DNA of 64,000 bases from Mustelus asterias. Taxonomy: Eukaryota. Positions 32,905 through 53,540 of this stretch are shown piece after piece. The notes beneath the pieces were generated by a model. It searched no databases, was not told the origin of the DNA, and saw only the letters and a list, made by a program, of their open reading frames with translations. Made by a program: the position numbers and the translations under genes. The DNA lies in NCBI RefSeq assembly GCF_964213995.1, contig NC_135803.1, forward strand, positions 121,396,001-121,460,000. The letters are read 5' to 3'. Within the stretch, counting starts at the first letter, position 1. Each line of letters begins with the position of its first letter.

Positions 32905-33835
32905 TAAATAAAAGCAAGATATTGGGGATGCTGGAAATCTGAAAGAAAAACAGAAAGTGCTAGATTAACTCAGCAGGTCTGGCAGCATTTGTGGAGAGAA
33001 AAACACAAGTTTGAGTCCATTGCCCCTTCTACAGAACTGAAAAGGAATAGAAATGTAATCAATTACATGGGGCGGCACAGTGGTACAGTGGTTAGCACTG
33101 CTGCCTCACAGCGTCAGGGACCCAGGTTCGATTCCCGGCTCGGGTCACTGTCTATGTGGAGTCTGCACACTCTCCCCGTGTCTGTGTGGGTTTCCTCCAG
33201 GTGCTCCGGTTTCCTCCCACAGTCAAAAATGTGCGGGTTAGGTGGATAGGCCATGCTAAATTGCTGTTTAATGTTGGGGGACTAGCTAGGGTAAATGCAT
33301 GGGGTTATAGGGATAGGGCCTGTGTGGGACTGTGGTTGGTGTAGACTCGATGGGCCAAATGGCCTCCTTCTGCACTGTAGGATTCTGTGATCAGTTTTCG
33401 ATACTGGGAGAGGGAGCTGAGGCAGAATGGAAAGTGTCCTTTAACTTGTCTCACTTGCTGCAAATAAAAGGTGTAGCTATGAGTACCCACATGAGCCCCA
33501 GTTATGCCTGTCTTTTTGTGTGTTATATGGAACATTCCATGTCCTAGTCCTACTCAGGCCACTCCCACAACTCTTTCTTTGTTACATCAATGACTGCATC
33601 GGTGCCACGACATGTTCTCGTCTAGACCTGGAAAAATTTATCGATTTTGCTTCTAATTTCAATCCCTCTCACACCTTCACATGGTCCATTTCCGACAATT
33701 CCCTTCCTTGACCTCTCTGTCTCCATTTCTGGCGATAATCTGATCACCAATATTCATCACAAACCTGCCGACTTACATTGCTACCTTGAATACACCTCCT
33801 CACACCCTGCTTCCTGGAAGAACTCCATCCCATTC
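32905..33835 (+). mobile_element. Penelope-like element: inverted pseudo-LTR piece plus RT fragment, interrupted by HE1
   Basis: SFNLSHLLQIKGVAMSTHMSPSYACLF and LFLCYINDCIGA (PLE RT motifs GxAMG/YIDD, decayed). Pseudo-LTR-like sequence at 32905-33040. Confidence 0.8.
33069..33390 (+). mobile_element. HE1 SINE
   Basis: Head, V-domain and tail. Confidence 0.9.
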
Positions 33836-35450: not shown

Positions 35451-36614
35451 TATACACTATGTACATCAAGAGTAGTCATTCAAGAGTGTGGAGGTAAGAG
35501 GATGGTGGTTGTGGATTGATAGTGTTGAAATTATGATTCAGGGATTGGGAATAGGGATCCTGGGATGTGGGACGATTGTAAAGGAGAGTAAGGTTCTGGA
35601 AGAACGTCAGAAAAGTAGCGGAACATGAGAGTACTGTGAAGATGTACAGGATTAATGGGGGTGAATCAGTATAAGAAATCTCCAGGTAGCAACCTGAATG
35701 CACATGATAGCATTGCATTGTGAAGCTACTTTTAAAAATAAGAGGCAATTTAGCCACTTGGACTATGACTTTTGGAGGATTAAAATCTATTACTAAAAAT
35801 CTAAGCACAATTTGATTCACAAAATTACAGAGTCTCATCAGCACAAAAGATAAGCTGGAACATCACACCTGTGCTGCCGTTTTAGTTTCACTTCCCTGCT
35901 CTCTCCCCTTTACCCTGCAATTTGCTCCCCTTGAAGTATTTATCCAATTCCTTTTAGAAAGTTAGTATGGAATTTTCTTCCACCACATTTTCAGGCACTG
36001 CATTCCAGATTATATTAACTAAATGTGTTTTCTTTAATTCTTTTCCTCTAACTGCTGTTTTGTTTTGTTAATGACCTTGAATCTGTGTACACTGGTTACC
36101 AACCTTTCTGCCATGGAAACAGTTTCTCTTTATGAATTTGAATCCCTCTATTTAATTTTCCCTCCAGCTTTTTAACTATAATGAGAACAATTCCAGCTTC
36201 TCTGGTCCCTCCTGTAACAGAAGGCCCTTATCTCCAGTACGTTCTGATGCGCGATTAAATCACTCGGGAGGCTGGATCGTACCCGGGAAATAAAGGCTTT
36301 TATTACTAACAAGAATGGAGCACACTATACACAATACAATCCCAGACTAAAGGGTCACCAGGCAGTGCAGTGACCTTTATACTCCTCCAGGTAGGCGGAG
36401 CCAACTGGAGTGTACCACAGAACAATATCAACAGGTAGAACACCCCAACCCGAACCCCAACAGTAACAACAGTAACATATCTACAAGTACCCATAGTGCT
36501 GACCATCTATGGTTCAGTACTCATAGTGGTAACCAACTATGGTTCACCACATTCACCCCTCCTTTAAGACAAAGGCTGGCGGGGCAAAAAAAACCAGAAC
36601 AACTGTCCATATAT

Positions 36615-37505
36615 TCACAAGTTCAGTCGTATTGGAGGACCGCACCGTCTCTGCGACCTCCTCAACACTGGCGGTAACGCCGGTTCTGGTGACCGTGGTG
36701 ACCTTCTCTCCAAGGCGGTGTCCAGTGACTCCTCCAGTTCTTCACGGACAGGTGGACCTCGAGGTGGCGACAATCTGCTGGACTCGAGCACGCCTCGAGG
36801 TGGCGACAATCTCCTGGACTCAGGCAAGCTGTACACGGGAGTAAGAGGATTAAGTGGTGGTCCCGATACTGCCCGCGCCGTGTCAGGAAGGGAGATAAAG
36901 ATCAAGGGGTCCCTAACTAGGGTTGTGGGAGCGACTGGGGTTTCCAAGTCCCCTACAGGCGCCAGATCGCTAATAGAGACCGTGTCCTCTCGCCCGTCAG
37001 GATATGCCACATAGGCATATTGAGGGTTGGCGTGGAGGAGATGGACCTGTTCAACCAAAGGGTCGGACTTGCGGGTCCTAACATGCCGCTGCAGGAGGAC
37101 AGGTCCTGAGTACATCAACCAAGACGGCAATGAGGTCCCAGAGGAAGACTTCCTAGGGAAGGAAAACATCCTCTCATGTGGAGTAGCGTTGGTTGCCGTA
37201 CACAGGAGGGACCGGATGGAATGGAGCGCATCAGAAAGTACCTCTTGCCAACGGGAGACTGGAAGACCCTTAGACCTCAACGCCAGTAAGACAGCCTTCC
37301 AGACTGTAGCATTTTCTCTTTCAACCTGCCCGTTACCCTTGGGGTTGTAACTCGTAGTTCTACTTGAGGCAATCCTTTTTGAGAGCAGGTATTGCCTCAA
37401 GTCGTCACTCATAAATGACGAGCCCCTATCACTGTGGATATAGCTGGGGTAACCGAACAGGGTGAAAAGATCCCGTAATGCTTTGATAACCGTGGCTGCG
37501 GTCAT
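36615..37505 (-). CDS. Gypsy integrase catalytic core and C-terminus (separated by a 1-nt frameshift)
   Basis: IHSDRGSSF, YNPKGNGQVERENAT, terminal LRRSQR...PP motif. Confidence 0.9.
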   Translation of the reverse strand: MTAATVIKALRDLFTLFGYPSYIHSDRGSSFMSDDLRQYLLSKRIASSRTTSYNPKGNGQVERENATVWKAVLLALRSKGLPVSRWQEVLSDALHSIRSLLCTATNATPHERMFSFPRKSSSGTSLPSWLMYSGPVLLQRHVRTRKSDPLVEQVHLLHANPQYAYVAYPDGREDTVSISDLAPVGDLETPVAPTTLVRDPLIFISLPDTARAVSGPPLNPLTPVYSLPESRRLSPPRGVLESSRLSPPRGPPVREELEESLDTALERRSPRSPEPALPPVLRRSQRRCGPPIRLNL

Positions 37506-40003
37506 GTCTGAACAGGGAATGGCAAAGGGAATCGTGAGTACTCGTCAATCACGTTGAGGAAGTACACGTTCCGATCTGTCGAAGGAAGGGGGCCCTTGAA
37601 GTCCACACTCAGTCTTTCAAAAGGGCGAGTGGCCTTAATGAGGTGTGCCCTGTCAGGTCGGTAGAAGTGCGGTTTGCATTCAGCACATACCTGGCAGCTT
37701 CGGGTTATGGACCTGACATCATCCACTGAGTAGGGTAGATTCCGGGCCTTTACAAAATGGAAGAGCCGAGTGATCCCCGGATGGCAGAGATCATTGTGGA
37801 GGGCCTGTAATCGATCCTCCTGCACACTTGCACATGTTCCACGCGACAGGGCGTCTGAGGGCTCATTGAGCTTCCCCGGATGGTACATGATATCATAATT
37901 GTAGGTGGAGAGTTCGATTCTCCACCTCAAGATTTTATCATTTTTGATCTTACCCCGTAACGTGTTGTTGAACATGAACGCCACGGACCGCTGGTCCGTG
38001 AGCAGGGTGAATCGTTTTCCCGCTAAGTAATGGCGCCAATGCCAGACGGCCTCCACAATGGCCTGAGCCTCTTTTTCCACCGCGGAGTGCCGAATTTCAG
38101 GGCCTTGGAGGGTGCGAGAGAAAAAGGCGACAGGCCTGCCCGCCTGGTTAAGTGTGGCGGCCAGGGCGAAATCAGATGCATCACTCTCCACCTGAAAGGG
38201 GATGGACTCATCAACCGCGTGCATCGTGGCTTTCGCAATGTCGGCTTTTATCCCTTCAAAGGCTAAGCGAGCCTCTGCTGCCAGGGGAAAAGAGGTAGAC
38301 TTTATGAGCGGACGGGCTTTGTCCGCATAATTGGGAACCCACTGTGCATAGTATGAAAAGAAACCTAAGCATCTTCTCAGTGCTTTTATGCTAGTGGGCA
38401 GGAGAAGTTCAAGGAGGGGACGCATACGGTCTGGATCAGGGCCAAGGACCCCGTTTTCCACCACGTATCCGAGAATAGCTAGGCGGCGCTTGCTAAATAC
38501 ACTTTTCTCCCTGTTGTAGGTCAGATTCAGGCGAGGCGCAGTGCGTAAAAATCTAAGGAGATTGGCATCGTGGTCCTGCTGGTCATGGCCGCAGATAGTG
38601 ACGTTGTCCAGGTACGGGAAGGTAGCCCGCAGCCCGTTCTGGTACACCATTCGGTCCATTGCACGCTGGAAGACCGAGACCCCATTCGTGACGCCAAAGG
38701 GAACCCTTAAAAAGTGGTAAAGACGACCATCCGCCTCAAAGGCCGTATATTTTTGGTCCTCTGGGCGAATGGGGAGCTGGTGGTAAGCTGACTTCAAGTC
38801 AATGGTGGAGAACATCCGGTACTGCACAATCTGGTTGACCATATCAGATATGCGCGGGAGAGGATACGCGTCCAGCTGCGTGTATCTATTAATGGTCTGA
38901 CTATAGTCTATGACCATCCGGGGTTTGTCTCCAGTTTTAACCACCACGACTTGCGCTCTCCATGGACTAGTGCTAGGTTGAATGATCCCTTCCCTGAGGA
39001 GCCGCTGAACTTCAGATCGAATAAAGATCCGATCCTCAGCGCTGTAACGCCTGCTCTTATTTGCGATGGGCTTGCAGCCTGGCACGAGATTCTCGAATAA
39101 GGATGGTGGGGTGATTCTGAGTGTCGAGAGGCTACACGTGGAGCGCGCTGGGCAATTTGGAGGCTGCTGTGCTCCCACTGAAAGTGGAGGGAGTGGTCCA
39201 TCGTACTGCAGGATTACACTCCTCAGGTGGACCATAAAGTCTAGTCCCAGGAGTATCGGAGCGCAAAGGTGCGGTAACACGAGGAGCCTGAAGTTCTCAT
39301 GAACTGTGCCCCGCACCGTTAGGTTGACCACGCAGCTCCCAAGCACGGTAACAGACCGGGACCTTGACGCCATCGAAATTGTCTGTCTGACAGTCCGTAC
39401 TCGGAGACCCCACCGTTTCACGGTGTCAGGGTGAATGAAACTCTCCGTGCTCCCGCTGTCAAACAAACAATGAATTAGGCGTCCATTTACCTCTATGCCC
39501 ATCATGGACTTGTCGAGTCTGTGAGGCTTGGCCTGGTCCAGGATGATTGACGCCACCGTTGGGTCTTGAGTGCAACTGCAGGCAGCTGAGATGGTTGATG
39601 ATGATGACCCCTGCTGGTCGTCTGCGGTCGGTGCCGACCAAAATGGCTGTGCCCATGGATCGCATGTGGTCGGTGGCGCTAAAAGTGGCAGCTCCTGCAG
39701 GTCGCACGTGTCTTGCGTCTTCGTCGTCAGGAATGGCGGCGCTCTGGAATCGCACGTGGTGGAAGACCTCGAAGAAGCAGGAGACAAGGAGACAGGCTCT
39801 GGAGAATCACACACCGCGCTGCTATGCTTGGAGGGTGGTTTGGCCCTGCAGACTTTGGCATAATGCCCTTTCTTCCCACACGCGGAGCAAAATACCGTTC
39901 TGGCTGGACATCGCTGCCGAGGGTGTTTCACCAATCCACAGAAATAGCACCGCAGGCCTCCTGGAGCTGCTGCCGTCGTCAGGTCCGAGGTTGAAAACCA
40001 CAA
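37502..40003 (-). CDS. pol: Gypsy Gag zinc knuckles, protease, RT, RNase H and integrase N-terminus
   Basis: CYFCGLVKHPRQRC / CSACGKKGHYAKVC; LFDSGS protease; IDLKSAYHQ, PFGVTNG, YLDN; SDASD, EKEAQA, TDQ; HHCC zinc finger; SVDFKGP. Confidence 0.93.
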   Translation of the reverse strand: MWFSTSDLTTAAAPGGLRCYFCGLVKHPRQRCPARTVFCSACGKKGHYAKVCRAKPPSKHSSAVCDSPEPVSLSPASSRSSTTCDSRAPPFLTTKTQDTCDLQELPLLAPPTTCDPWAQPFWSAPTADDQQGSSSSTISAACSCTQDPTVASIILDQAKPHRLDKSMMGIEVNGRLIHCLFDSGSTESFIHPDTVKRWGLRVRTVRQTISMASRSRSVTVLGSCVVNLTVRGTVHENFRLLVLPHLCAPILLGLDFMVHLRSVILQYDGPLPPLSVGAQQPPNCPARSTCSLSTLRITPPSLFENLVPGCKPIANKSRRYSAEDRIFIRSEVQRLLREGIIQPSTSPWRAQVVVVKTGDKPRMVIDYSQTINRYTQLDAYPLPRISDMVNQIVQYRMFSTIDLKSAYHQLPIRPEDQKYTAFEADGRLYHFLRVPFGVTNGVSVFQRAMDRMVYQNGLRATFPYLDNVTICGHDQQDHDANLLRFLRTAPRLNLTYNREKSVFSKRRLAILGYVVENGVLGPDPDRMRPLLELLLPTSIKALRRCLGFFSYYAQWVPNYADKARPLIKSTSFPLAAEARLAFEGIKADIAKATMHAVDESIPFQVESDASDFALAATLNQAGRPVAFFSRTLQGPEIRHSAVEKEAQAIVEAVWHWRHYLAGKRFTLLTDQRSVAFMFNNTLRGKIKNDKILRWRIELSTYNYDIMYHPGKLNEPSDALSRGTCASVQEDRLQALHNDLCHPGITRLFHFVKARNLPYSVDDVRSITRSCQVCAECKPHFYRPDRAHLIKATRPFERLSVDFKGPLPSTDRNVYFLNVIDEYSRFPLPFPVQT

Positions 40004-40613
40004 TCGCGCAGTTTTTCAGAGCCGCTGGGTAGAGTTGAGTCGGTGGCTGCACTTGCCACGATGTTCCCACGTGGTCGGTGGGGTAAGTTTCTAGACTTCT
40101 GGAGGCCGTTTCCATCGTGTCAGCCAATTCCACCGTCTTAGCGAGGTCTAGGTTTCCTTGCTCTAGCAGCCGCAGGCGAATATACGATGAGCCGATTCCC
40201 GCCACGAACGCATCTCGGATCAAGTCGTTCGTATACTGGGCCGCCGACACTGGCTTGCAGTTGCAGGCTCTGGCTAGCTGCTGAAGTTCGTGCAGGTACT
40301 GTCCTGTCGTTTCACCGGGCTGCCGCCATCGAGTGGCTAGAAGGTGTCGAGCATGGATCTCGTTTGGCGGTTTGTTGTACAGTTTCTTAAGTAGTTCGAA
40401 AGCCCCTTTGTAGTCTTGGGCATTGCGGATTGATGAGTATACAGTGTCGCTTACCCTTGCGTGGAGGACCCGCAGTCTATCGGCGTCGTTTTGAATGGCT
40501 GTTGAGGCATCGATGTAGTCTTGAAAACACTTTAACCAATGGTCGAAAGTGTTCGACGCTCCCGCTGCACGTGGATCTAAGGTAAGCCGATCAGGTTTCA
40601 ACATTTGCTCCAT
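39822..40613 (-). CDS. gag: Gypsy Gag N-terminal part (frame diverges from homology near 40010)
   Basis: MEQMLKPDRLTLDP...HWLKCF...ARHLLAT.WRQPGE...LIRDAFVAGI..IRLRLLE. Confidence 0.85.
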   Translation of the reverse strand: MEQMLKPDRLTLDPRAAGASNTFDHWLKCFQDYIDASTAIQNDADRLRVLHARVSDTVYSSIRNAQDYKGAFELLKKLYNKPPNEIHARHLLATRWRQPGETTGQYLHELQQLARACNCKPVSAAQYTNDLIRDAFVAGIGSSYIRLRLLEQGNLDLAKTVELADTMETASRSLETYPTDHVGTSWQVQPPTQLYPAALKNCAIVVFNLGPDDGSSSRRPAVLFLWIGETPSAAMSSQNGILLRVWEERALCQSLQGQTTLQA

Positions 40614-41492
40614 GGTTTTTTTTACCAAAATTTTGTTAGTAATAAAATTGATGCGCGATTAAATCACTCGGGAGGCTGGATCGTACCCGGGAAATAAAGG
40701 CTTTTATTACTAACAAGAAGGGAGCATACTATATACAATACAATCCCAGACTAAAGGGTCACCAGGCAGTGCAGTGACCTTTATACTCCTCCAGGTAGGC
40801 GGAGCCAACTGGAGTGTACCACAGAACAATATCAACAGGTAGAACACCCCAACCCTAACCCCAACAGTAACATATCTACAAGTACCCATAGTGCTGACCA
40901 TCAATGGTTCAGTACTCATAGTGGTAACCAACTATGGTTCAACACACGTTCTAGTAAATCTCCTCCCCAGCTAAGACTTTGTCATCCTTCCTGCAGTCCA
41001 GTGTCCAGAACTGATCATTATAGTCCAAATAAGGCCTAGCCTACAGCGTCTAAATATTTAGCATTACTTCCTTGCTTTTGAGCTTGATGCCTCAACTAAT
41101 AAAGTCATATTTACTTGTGCTGCCACCTTCAAAGATTTCTTCTATAAACCACCAGGCCAATTGGATCATTTATGTTATATCACCTCTCCTCATCCTTACA
41201 AAATGCATCACTTCATCGTGCTTTCAATTGAATTTCATCTACCATGTGTCTCCTCATTTCACAGATGTCCCACTGGAGTCTGCTGCTATCTTCTGCAATA
41301 CTTTTCTGAGTTGTGTGCTATGGAGAAAGTATTGACGCCCTGAATACCAAATTCAGAAAAATAGCAAACAGCTTACATACAGTTGGACAACTCCTTGGAT
41401 GAGATGCATTCATTCCTGCAAACTCGCTTGGGAAAACATGTTAAAATTATTGGTTAGCATGCTGACTCATTTGGACTCCGACAGGGCATCTT

Positions 41493-48920: not shown

Positions 48921-49335
48921 TAATTTTATGAGTAGTTTCATGAAAAACTGCTAAAATTGTATAACAAATTTGGAAAAAATAAACTACATCATGATTGCTT
49001 GCATTGTATTTCTTTCAGACAGATAATTTTTCAGAAAAAATGGAGGAAGGGAATTGGTTGCTTTTGCCTGGATTGCTCATTCCTGAAGAATATATTTTAT
49101 ACAATGTTATAATCAGAGAAGTATGATTGTTGCATTTTTCTACAGATACTCAAAGTGTGACATAGGCCATGCATACAACTTTTAATTATACATATATGTA
49201 TATTTTCCCATCTCAATTGAATATCAGGTGCAATTTCTTTATTCTATGCTTACAAAGAAAGGTGAGTTAAATGCCAATACCTGCCAGGAATACTACTGCT
49301 GTTTGAAATGTAGGATCATAGGATTTCACATATTA

Positions 49336-49654
49336 GGGCAGCAAGGTGGCACAGTGGTTAGCACTGCTACCTCACAGCGCCAGGGACGCGGATTCAATTC
49401 CCAGCTTGGGTCACTGACTGTGTGGAGTTTGCATATTCTCCCCGTGTCTGTGTGGGTTTCCTCTGGATGCTCTGGTTTCCTCAAAGATGTGCGAGGTAGG
49501 TGGATTGGCTATGATAAATTGTCCATTCGTGTCAGGGGGATTAGCAGGGTAAATATATGGGGTTACAGGGATAGGGCCTGAGTGGCATCATTGTCGGTGC
49601 AGACTCGATGGGCCGAATGGCCTCCTTCCACACTGTAGTGATTCTATGATTCTA
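49336..49654 (+). mobile_element. HE1 SINE
   Basis: Head, V-domain and tail ATTCTATGATTCTA. Confidence 0.9.
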
Positions 49655-50252
49655 GTTTGTGTAATGGCATATATATACTATCACTTTAATACATATTTAT
49701 CATTCCTTTCCATGAATATTTATTACATCACAATTTAGCACTGATTTTTATCCATTTACATCTACCCAACTTTGCATTCCAAGTTGCGTACACAGTGACC
49801 TAATCATTTTGTAAAGCTAAATGCATTGCATGCTTAAAGGTTAGCGAAAAACAATCAGGCCTTTCTAAGCCTTCCTAGATATTAGATCTGGATATAGTGC
49901 ATTAAACACACTAACATATTCCTAACCATACAATCTCTTTGAAGAGGCAGGAATTCTAATTCAACATTTATTCCTGAAAACTATAAAATGTATCATAAAT
50001 TGCAAGAAATCTTACTGCTTCAATTCAAAACAATTATGGAAGAGACTGTAAAAATCCATCTGTGAGCATTCACAAACTCTGCCTTGAGATATATGTGTGT
50101 TGGCTTTTTTAAAATCTCTCTGCATTCTTGCTGACATGTTTTATGTATCTTTGCATTTCTGATTTCATTCTGAGTCTATATTTCCCCGGTTACTAAGATA
50201 TATGCAGCACTTTCACTGTTCTTGCAGTGTGCACAGCATGTATGTGTCAACT

Positions 50253-51329: not shown

Positions 51330-53540
51330 ACTTGAAGGGGAAAGTTCAAGGAAATTGGACCTTTGCTTTGCTAAATGACACAAAACTTAAATGTGGGGGG
51401 GATAGTTATAACCTTGTAAGAGGACATAGATAGACTAGTGGAGCAGGCATGTGTGTGGAAACAAATTTTAATGCAAAGAAGTGTGAAGTAATTCACTTTA
51501 GTAGCAAGAAAAAGAGAAGCAATACAAAATAAAAGATACAAATCTAAAGTGGGTGCAGGAACAGAGAGACCTATGCACAAATCATTGGAGGTGGCTGGGC
51601 AGGTTGAAAAAGTGGTTCATAAAGTAAACTGCATCCTGGACTTTATAAATAGGGACATAATACAAAAGCAAGAATGTTATCAGCTGAAATATTGGCCTGG
51701 ATTTTCATACCCAAGGCACGTGCCTAGACTCAGCAAATTTCCCTCATTGAAATGCCTGCCTCAGTACTTTGGCACTTTGTTCCAGTTGTATAGTTGAATA
51801 TTAGGTCCTCTGGTCTTCATCCTTTACCTCTCACCCCCATTCTCCCCACCCCATTGCACTCCCCATGGCCCAACCAACCTCAAATGGCCCCTCAAAGCCA
51901 CCTATGTCCCCCTCAATCCCATGGTTTCTTATAGCCCTATTGCCAACTTAGTACCAACTCATGCCAACCGATGACCACCACCTTTTGCCCTGAAGCCTTC
52001 CATGCCAACTCATCCAGTATCCCCAATAGGCAGACCTGAGGAGTGATACTGAGATGAAATAGAAATGGTCTAAGTATCTATTACGGACATCACTATGTAA
52101 AACAAAGTGATAAAAGCTCTCATTCAATATATTTAAATCTCCTTGCAAGTACTTGATCTCTTTATAAAAATAAATATTTAGATTCATAACCTCACAAAGA
52201 TAACTAATCTCTTAATAATCTCTTGGAGCTGTCAATCAAATTGTGAATTTAACACCGTGTCACCGCCCCCCCCCCCCCCACTATGATAATAACAGGTTGA
52301 GGCACATTTAAAGCGGTATTAATATGCTAAGGTTTGCCTTTAAGATTATGTCAACAAATAGCTACTGAAATTGCATGGAACATTTTTTCTCAGTTGGGTT
52401 TTTTTCAAAATTTAATTGGCAGGAGGTTTAAATATCCTGACAGCTTAACTGTTCTTCAGACCTTATCTGCATTTTGCAAGCGTTTACATCTACTCTTAAA
52501 AATTGTAACTCACATACTGAGGGATAAGGCCCTTACTCTTGCAAAAATGAGGGCTGTTTGAACTCAGCACTGTATTCTAGTGGCCCTGCTGGGACTAACA
52601 TCCTGACCCCGTTCCCCTACCAGCAAAAGTAGGATCTGTCAGAATGATAGGTGGGACTTCTGGATTTAGGGTCACAATGTCATTTGGATGCGGCAGGCAT
52701 GGTAGCACAGTGGTTAGCATTGCTGCTTCACAGCTCCAGGGTCCCGGGTTCGATGCTCGGGTCACTGTCTGTGTGGAGTTTGCACATTCTCCTCGTGTCT
52801 GCGTGGGTTTCCTCCGGGTGCTCCGGTTTCCTCCCATAGTCCAAAGATGTGCGGGTTAGGTTGATTGGCCAGGTTAAAAATTGTCCCTTAGAGTCCTGGG
52901 ATGCGTAGGTTAGAGGGATTAGCGGGTAAATATGTGGGGGTAGGGCCTGGGTGGGATTGTGGTCGGTGCAGACTCGATGGGCCGAATGGCCTCCTTCTGC
53001 ACTGTAGGGATTCTATGATTCTATGAGGTGTAGAATCTTTAGGAATCCAGAAAATCATGCCATTGGATCCAATTCTGGGCATGACATTTTAGGAATGATG
53101 AGCAGGCATTTGAGAGGGTATGAACAGAATTAGTAGATTAGATCTTTGGACCTTTTCCAAGGATAGGTTGGAAAAGCTGAGGTTCATCACCTTAGTGAAG
53201 GGAAGATTAAGAGGAGATTTTATGAAAATGTTCAAAACCAAGAGGGGATTGCACAGAGTTGATATGGGGAAATTGTTCTCATTGGCTGAAGGCTCAAGAC
53301 CAGAGGATGCTGATTTAAGTTGATTGACAAAAGAAACAATGGTGACGTGAGGTTTTTTTAATACAGTGTATTATTAAGATCTGGAATGTTCTGTGTGAGA
53401 ATGCAGTGGAGGCACTTGAAATCAAGGCATTCAAAATAGAATTTGTCAATTATCTGAAGAGGAAACATTTGCAAGGCTATGTACAAAAGGCGGGGAAGTG
53501 GGACGAAGTGAATTGTCTTTGCAGAGAACTGCCACATACA
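51330..53540 (+). mobile_element. Old CR1 remnant interrupted by a TIR element (~51693-53062) that itself contains HE1
   Basis: CR1 motifs (TTTGCTAAATGACACAAAAC; RLRGDF) on both sides; TIR-like GGCCTGGATTTTC / GAAAATCATGCC. Confidence 0.6.
52696..53025 (+). mobile_element. HE1 SINE (young)
   Basis: Head, V-domain and tail (ATTCTATG)2. Confidence 0.92.

Follow-up and report, generated by a model that had tools for sequence, protein, structure and literature searches.

A Ty3/Gypsy element of Mustelus asterias appears to prime its reverse transcription with the first ~50 nt of its own RNA. [quoted passage not shown] The complementarity behind it is real and clade-wide, and the priming is most likely a longer-tailed variant of the Tf1 type. 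An abundant clade without chromodomains appears to use a tailed primer of ~50 nt that ends at a poly(A) signal. Such elements would be independent of host tRNA, and annotation tools would count them as defective if they insist on a tRNA PBS. The approach used here is reusable: it locates the start site as well as the cut site from integrated mis-copies, with genome sequence as its only input. The model yields base-level predictions and would account for one class of short palindromic LTR insertions that carry target-site duplications.

A primer-binding site complementary to its own LTR

The element lies on the minus strand at 36245-40946 of the window, by which we mean the whole stretch of DNA analysed (64,000 nt; positions 121,396,001 to 121,460,000 of NC_135803.1). 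It encodes gag, protease, reverse transcriptase (RT), RNase H, then integrase in that sequence (Table 1). The features that place it in Ty3/Gypsy are the PR-RT-RH-IN order, the TG...CA LTRs, the polypurine tract and the target-site duplication, the last features being found in relatives as well. The LTR pair is 98% identical over 224 nt and has one additional 9-nt indel. A profile search detected the RNase H domain, and a Pfam search of the gag frame gave no match. In the window copy, the frame that carries protease, RT and RNase H is out of frame with both gag and the integrase core; relatives P0006 and P0007 have single frames of 1457 and 1338 aa. The window copy is thus frame-broken twice (between gag and pol, and within integrase), and related copies in the genome are open over up to 1421 aa.

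Table 1. Features of the element and its flanks, listed from the 5' side of the minus strand.
Feature	Position in window	Strand	Basis
Target-site duplication, upstream copy, 5 bp	40947..40951	-	sequence
5' LTR, TG...CA, 298 bp	40649..40946	-	sequence comparison
TATA box, TATAAA	40780..40785	-	sequence; spacing to initiator
Putative transcription start, +1 A of initiator	40752	-	homologous base is the stop of 5 aberrant related-family loci
36-nt leader, putative unpaired 5' tail of primer	40717..40752	-	copied behind PBS in aberrant insertions
LTR arm, putative pairing part of primer	40702..40716	-	complementarity to PBS
Putative RNA cut site, AAAA/GCC junction	40701..40703	-	inverted U5 ends there in 21 fold-back loci
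54-nt loop: rest of R, U5, LTR-end CA, 1-nt spacer	40648..40701	-	
Primer-binding site, complement of LTR arm, no TGG	40633..40647	-	sequence
gag frame, ATG 20 nt behind PBS	39822..40613	-	look-alikes in the Atlas: clusters of retrotransposon gag
Zinc knuckle, protease, RT (YLDN), RNase H, integrase zinc finger	37502..40015	-	
Integrase core and C-terminus, without chromodomain match	36615..37544	-	Pfam
Polypurine tract, AA at end, before 3' LTR	36552..36565	-	
3' LTR	36245..36551	-	
Target-site duplication, downstream copy, 5 bp	36240..36244	-	

Behind the CA of the 5' LTR (40649), the minus strand reads A and then TTTTATTACTAACAA. An earlier note on this DNA had claimed that a tRNA PBS is missing, and the TGG start is indeed absent. 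The same note had described a 15-bp inverted repeat in its place. The PBS proved to be the perfect reverse complement of the LTR arm across the 54-nt loop, and the match extends by not one base on either side. Because the target-site duplication directly adjoins the 3' LTR, the partner strand exists only behind the 5' LTR, as the note had also stated. The TATA box and initiator that it predicted are present, and from their positions the arm would begin at +37, where the earlier estimate was ~35. The predicted RNA fold of 40600-40760 has a free energy of −39.5 kcal/mol (z = −2.97), which 1 of 200 shuffled sequences equalled, and the PBS-arm stem dominates the predicted fold of this 5' region.

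We sampled 88 loci from metagenome and genome collections, together with 60 from this genome that were found via the gag proteins of two relatives. The 120 loci with a gag start were grouped into 46 families, each represented by its first member. An anchored stem, defined as perfect and standing one base behind the LTR-end CA, reached at least 11 bp in 30 of the 46 families (one of the 30 being the rearranged copy L200), compared with 16 of 2070 non-cognate PBS-LTR pairs. The earlier note had proposed aligning relatives for compensation between the two arms; pairing was kept with changed sequence in those 30 families. Stems shorter than 8 bp occurred in 13 of the 46 representatives, many of which look truncated, rearranged or mutated. 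Among the 33 families with a stem of at least 8 bp, the PBS begins with TTT in 30 and with TGG in none, and the base triplet after the arm is GCC in 22 and ACC in 7. The paired part is mostly 12–19 bp across families. A second helix is predicted from the first base after the arm: its first four bases had a pairing probability P > 0.5 in 26 of 32 families vs 3 of 32 when shuffled (Wilcoxon p = 3.5e-7), the signal being weak in the window copy (0.51 vs 0.40). As a separate observation, an inverted LTR+PBS piece abuts the PBS of L200 head-to-head, and the join falls at a sequence resembling the LTR end.

Compensation was also seen within the window's family. Copies chosen by a PBS variant alone carried the compensating arm base in 20 of 25 cases, and two further PBS variants were compensated in 26 of 30 (30 read of 322 matches) and 28 of 30 copies (30 of 117); these compensated copies represent a few subfamilies, not independent events. 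Three singleton PBS variants were all uncompensated. L144 has the arm variant in its 5' and 3' LTRs alike, which means that the variant was inherited. Of the two PBS alleles in L327, the first agrees with the copy's own arm and the second, which adjoins gag, does not; this one case suggests a genome-derived second PBS beside an arm-matched first. Another locus, L313 (G000:C817:150477), is an ordinary copy except that the sequence following its PBS agrees with 7 bases of the leader upstream of the arm and that its own arm mismatches its PBS.

Probable ends of the primer

In five shark-type families, the distance from TATA box to initiator A is 30–34 nt in nearly all scored copies, and that from initiator to hexamer is 43–67 nt. 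A scan of distant families for TATA and initiator showed no consistent motif. More direct indications of the primer 5' end came from loci in which copying ran on past the PBS. L263 continues beyond its PBS as the complement of LTR sequence that lies upstream of the arm, and we therefore searched for similar PBS-leader junctions; L263 itself was rejected as a start-site marker, its run-on passing through all of U3. The search found 57 run-on loci, of which 56 were aligned. Thirty-eight cross all of U3, nine stop in the leader, four stop inside U3 and five stop at the initiator A, with offsets of 0, −1, 0, 0 and 0. Each of these five jumps to a site of its own, in gag, pol or the 3' region. Microhomology to the last copied bases is 6–7 nt in three of them and about 3 nt in one, and it leaves an uncertainty of up to 7 nt in where the stops fall. 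The probability that 5 of 13 independent stops fall in the 2-nt start-site window is about 1e-7 to 2e-5 when weighted for microhomology. In this count L370, L371, L374 and L382 form one deletion subfamily and enter as a single stop, and L322 (internal deletion), L380 (crosses U3 repeats) and L335 (unaligned) are left out. The deletion subfamily has lost the stretch from PBS to gag start, and its gag start is itself complementary to the leader; the gag start is complementary to the leader in the window's predicted fold as well.

Only one of the five start-site stops, L383, comes from a close sister of the window's family. Within the window's family group, 22 of 23 run-on loci pass the start site and the single stop was already known; a directed search for start-site stops yielded nothing beyond two known loci. 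For the long-leader family, a first run-on search had no match and a gapped pattern gave five run-ons, 0 of 5 stopping at the start site. The stop predicted at the longer leader's own start was absent, all five continuing into U3. Contigs from two presumed-RNA runs cover U3 too, and mark neither transcript start nor end. In the five loci that do stop at the initiator, copying ends 52 nt from the putative primer 3' end, and the paired segment would not be the extreme 5' end of the RNA. The simplest reading of these stops is that plus-strand DNA copied the attached RNA primer to its 5' end.

A geometry like that of Tf1 would instead have transcription begin at the arm and make a tail-less primer of ~15 nt, the upstream TATA and initiator serving another transcript. 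We judge this highly improbable. PBS complementarity in ordinary copies normally ends at the arm boundary, which agrees with such a primer, and the available text of PMC5341516 gives alternative start sites for Tf2. However, the whole leader was copied with a stop at the initiator A in five loci, and the TATA-initiator spacing is kept in five shark-type families. A TATATA-like word 19 nt before the arm in the window copy would suit a start at the arm, but it is altered in the 3' LTR and too near to be a TATA box, 19 nt being too short for the established spacing between TATA box and start.

The 3' end of the primer is indicated by fold-back insertions. In this class inverted U5 comes first, followed by a fold-back into PBS, inverted leader and U3, and several members have a target-site duplication. 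The shape is that expected of self-primed minus-strand strong-stop DNA which went on to copy its primer. In a set of 77 loci chosen regardless of their left side, 7 had inverted U5, and in 7 of 7 it ended at the AAAA/GCC junction; a match in L385 within this set was rejected as a false self-match. A directed fold-back pattern, which selects for strands reaching GCC, gave 46 matches compared with 1 in the control. Forty of the 46 were inspected. Fifteen of them end at the junction (14 new ones and L407 again), 2 reach past it into the arm, and the other 23 are chance matches or ordinary junctions. Four of the six left aside are loci already in the set. The junction-ending fold-back loci thus total 21 (7 unselected and 14 directed). 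All 13 that were checked keep 1–4 A's before GCC, which fits a cut one base inside the A-run; microhomology blurs the cut site by 1–4 nt. Such a cut would leave the CA plus two bases, just as two bases precede the TG of the 3' LTR. Indirectly, these loci point to a cut of the RNA at the 3' end of the paired segment.

The fold-back loci also favour a cut in cis, because an uncut template would be copied to +1. An uncut template is part of priming in trans, for which we see a slim chance. There, short LTR transcripts (running from the start to the 5' poly(A) site, or from a solo-LTR) would be trimmed to the duplex edge and anneal to uncut full-length RNA. After trimming, such a transcript would have the primer's ends at +1 and the poly(A) hexamer; the two fold-back loci that overshoot into the arm and the differing PBS and arm alleles of L313 and L327 are also in keeping with it. 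The strong-stop DNA that it predicts would nevertheless reach +1, whereas inverted U5 ends at the junction in all seven unselected and in 14 selected loci, and the conserved second helix begins exactly at that junction. Together, the start-site stops and the inverted-U5 ends make it most likely that the primer comprises the first ~50 nt of the RNA, is released by a cut in cis and has an unpaired tail of ~36 nt.

Twenty-four loci are short palindromic insertions built from LTR, PBS, inverted leader and U3; both of their ends are U3 ends, and a 5-bp target-site duplication is present (L303, L312, L320, L330/L331, L333, L337, L342, L363, L365, L376, L378, L385, L387, L389, L391, L393, L394, L396, L397, L400, L402, L403 and L405). 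They represent 23 events, L330 and L331 having common flanks and the appearance of segmental duplicates. Since 5-bp target-site duplications surround two integrase-type ends, the palindromes and several fold-backs were inserted in that form. In L405 and L400 the palindrome halves differ in leader or arm alleles, each half matching sister subfamilies, which suggests that two co-packaged RNAs lie behind these palindromes.

These insertions weigh on another account, which we regard as exceedingly unlikely: that concealing the 5' poly(A) signal is the hairpin's sole role, the primer being a tRNA fragment or other host RNA and the odd insertions being post-integration rearrangements of inverted repeats. 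In its favour, folding predictions have the hexamer paired in the 5' context, inverted repeats cause inversions, and L304, L311 and L362 continue into the inverted polypurine tract and could be of that origin. The host tRNA set was moreover covered partially, 63 matches having been scored and the 7 loci scanned yielding Lys, Thr, Tyr and Val genes only. Yet TGG is absent and the PBS sequences are family-specific and track their own LTR; this specificity argues against half-tRNA priming. A DNA rearrangement would also not stop at +1 or at the junction, nor does it account for 24 palindromic loci (23 events) and several fold-backs with 5-bp target-site duplications around two integrase-type ends.

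Proposed mechanism and the 5' poly(A) signal

In the self-priming mechanism that we propose, transcription would start at 40752, the arm would pair with the PBS, and the second helix would begin with the base that follows the arm. The RNA would then be cut within the last A's, just past the poly(A) hexamer, and a 3' OH would be freed. By analogy with Tf1, the element's own RNase H is the probable cutting enzyme, with odds somewhat better than even. RT would copy the ~54-nt U5 loop and run off at the cut, and the first strand transfer would use the short stretch of overlap that lies from the cut to the 3' poly(A) site. Plus-strand synthesis could copy the attached primer to its 5' end, rewriting the PBS from the arm. 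Because the primer would be copied into the PBS, compensation could arise without two independent mutations. Occasionally the copied primer would snap back, giving the palindromic insertions.

The earlier note had proposed that one hairpin both replaces the tRNA primer, in a geometry other than that of Tf1, and hides the 5' poly(A) signal. The first part is strongly supported by compensation, TATA-initiator spacing and fossil intermediates; the second is plausible only. In the window, the only A(A/T)TAAA hexamer of the LTR (40708-40703) lies inside the arm. Across families, AATAAA or ATTAAA stands at the arm end in 22 of 33, and 11 of 33 are without it, 3 of these having one in the loop. In 22 families the predicted pairing of the hexamer was 0.93 in the 5' context vs 0.42 in the LTR alone; the LTR-alone fold served as the comparison, and the 3' LTR folded with host flank also paired the hexamer. 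A PBS change at one hexamer position was seen once and was uncompensated, and a pattern search for poly(A)-tailed copies behind the hexamer had no match. From these folding predictions, the helix may, at rather less than even odds, also serve to block the 5' poly(A) signal. A simpler constraint would also fit: the RNA 3' end must pass the cut site for strand transfer, and the poly(A) signal would therefore be placed at or behind the cut.

A more far-reaching version, which we hold to be doubtful, treats the one helix as a double switch in a large clade of animal Gypsy elements. It would block the 5' poly(A) signal while the RNA is transcribed and later set the cut that releases a capped primer of ~50 nt; the conserved WAAA/RCC junction with its stacked second helix could be cut by an agent other than RNase H (for example a host endonuclease or the RNA itself). 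If this were true, the priming route would be mechanistically separate from that of Tf1 and would have evolved independently of chromoviruses.

Relation to known systems and distribution of the clade

To our knowledge, Tf1 is the only element for which experiments have shown self-priming; its primer is 11 nt long and forms the extreme 5' end of the RNA. Repbase entries reportedly call some animal Gypsy families self-primed. According to the available portions of the papers cited, the Tf1 primer is the first 11 bases, which pair with the PBS and are cut by RNase H between bases 11 and 12 (PMC7175516); the copied primer is kept in about half of Tf1 cDNA (PMC11042837); and Tj1, Tf2, Tcn1 and TAR are described as self-priming (PMC4600332, PMC5341516, PMC6317226). 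The Ty3/Gypsy domain order is common to the window element and to Tf1 and Tf2 of Schizosaccharomyces pombe, Tj1 of S. japonicus and the Tf1/sushi chromoviruses. The likeness extends to a PBS that complements the element's own LTR and to a primer that would come from the RNA 5' end and be copied into plus-strand cDNA, as those portions describe for the Tf1 type (PMC7175516, PMC4600332, PMC11042837).

Tf1 pairs its first 11 bases, whereas pairing in the window element would run from +37, behind a tail of ~36 nt. Unlike that of Tf1, the paired part in this clade ends in the poly(A) hexamer or a look-alike. The second helix beside the primer recalls the U5-IR-like stem of Tf1, which Tf1 reportedly needs. 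A Pfam search found a chromodomain in 0 of 11 integrase-bearing proteins (that of the window, whose RT motif is YLDN, and those of 10 relatives). The element appears to work like Tf1, but by the chromodomain it falls outside the Tf1/sushi chromoviruses.

In HIV-1, the 5' AAUAAA likewise lies in a helix; HIV-1 is tRNA-primed, and its poly(A) hairpin lies wholly within the repeat. Also shared with HIV-1 are the LTR-end CA, one spacer base and a PBS T opposite the primer's terminal A. Unlike in HIV-1, the partner strand of the window hexamer is the PBS, present only at the 5' end. For plant Tcn1 chromoviruses and TAR Ty1/copia elements, the prediction of self-priming relied on sequence after the LTR that has a complement of at least 10 bp within the 5' LTR; these belong to other lineages, the prediction is a sequence-only one, and the available text gives neither primer ends nor a poly(A) link (PMC6317226). 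Skipper of Dictyostelium is a Gypsy element without TGG and with a pyrimidine-rich stretch at the PBS position, but its LTR is reported, in the available text, to be without a complementary region (PMC5006619), whereas the complement in the window element is clear.

The full-text literature that we searched, a scope outside which subscription papers and Repbase lie, contained no account of priming in this clade, of a tailed self-primer or of these insertions. Motif searches for a clade name (Mag A/B/C, CsRN1, Cigr-1, MolGy) in full text and in part of the supplementary files of PMC6238403 and PMC8556966 had no match. The candidate name 'Smaug' was dropped, the literature matches being only to an unrelated gene.

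The closest named proteins are from catsharks and rays, then from cnidarians and a damselfly. In this genome, a first look gave 3430 candidates for one family. A scan of viral contigs found no relative. Eight loci of the clade (L111-L118) stand in genomes filed as bacterial MAGs and are probably host contamination. Loci L214-L239, mostly at G000:C16:97-99 Mb, are tandem tRNA-Lys/tRNA-Thr arrays with a period near 1.8 kb. Both strands of the window also carry many copies of a tRNA-like short interspersed repeat (e.g. 33069-33405, 49335-49663 and 52691-53032), which may be the shark HE1-type SINE.
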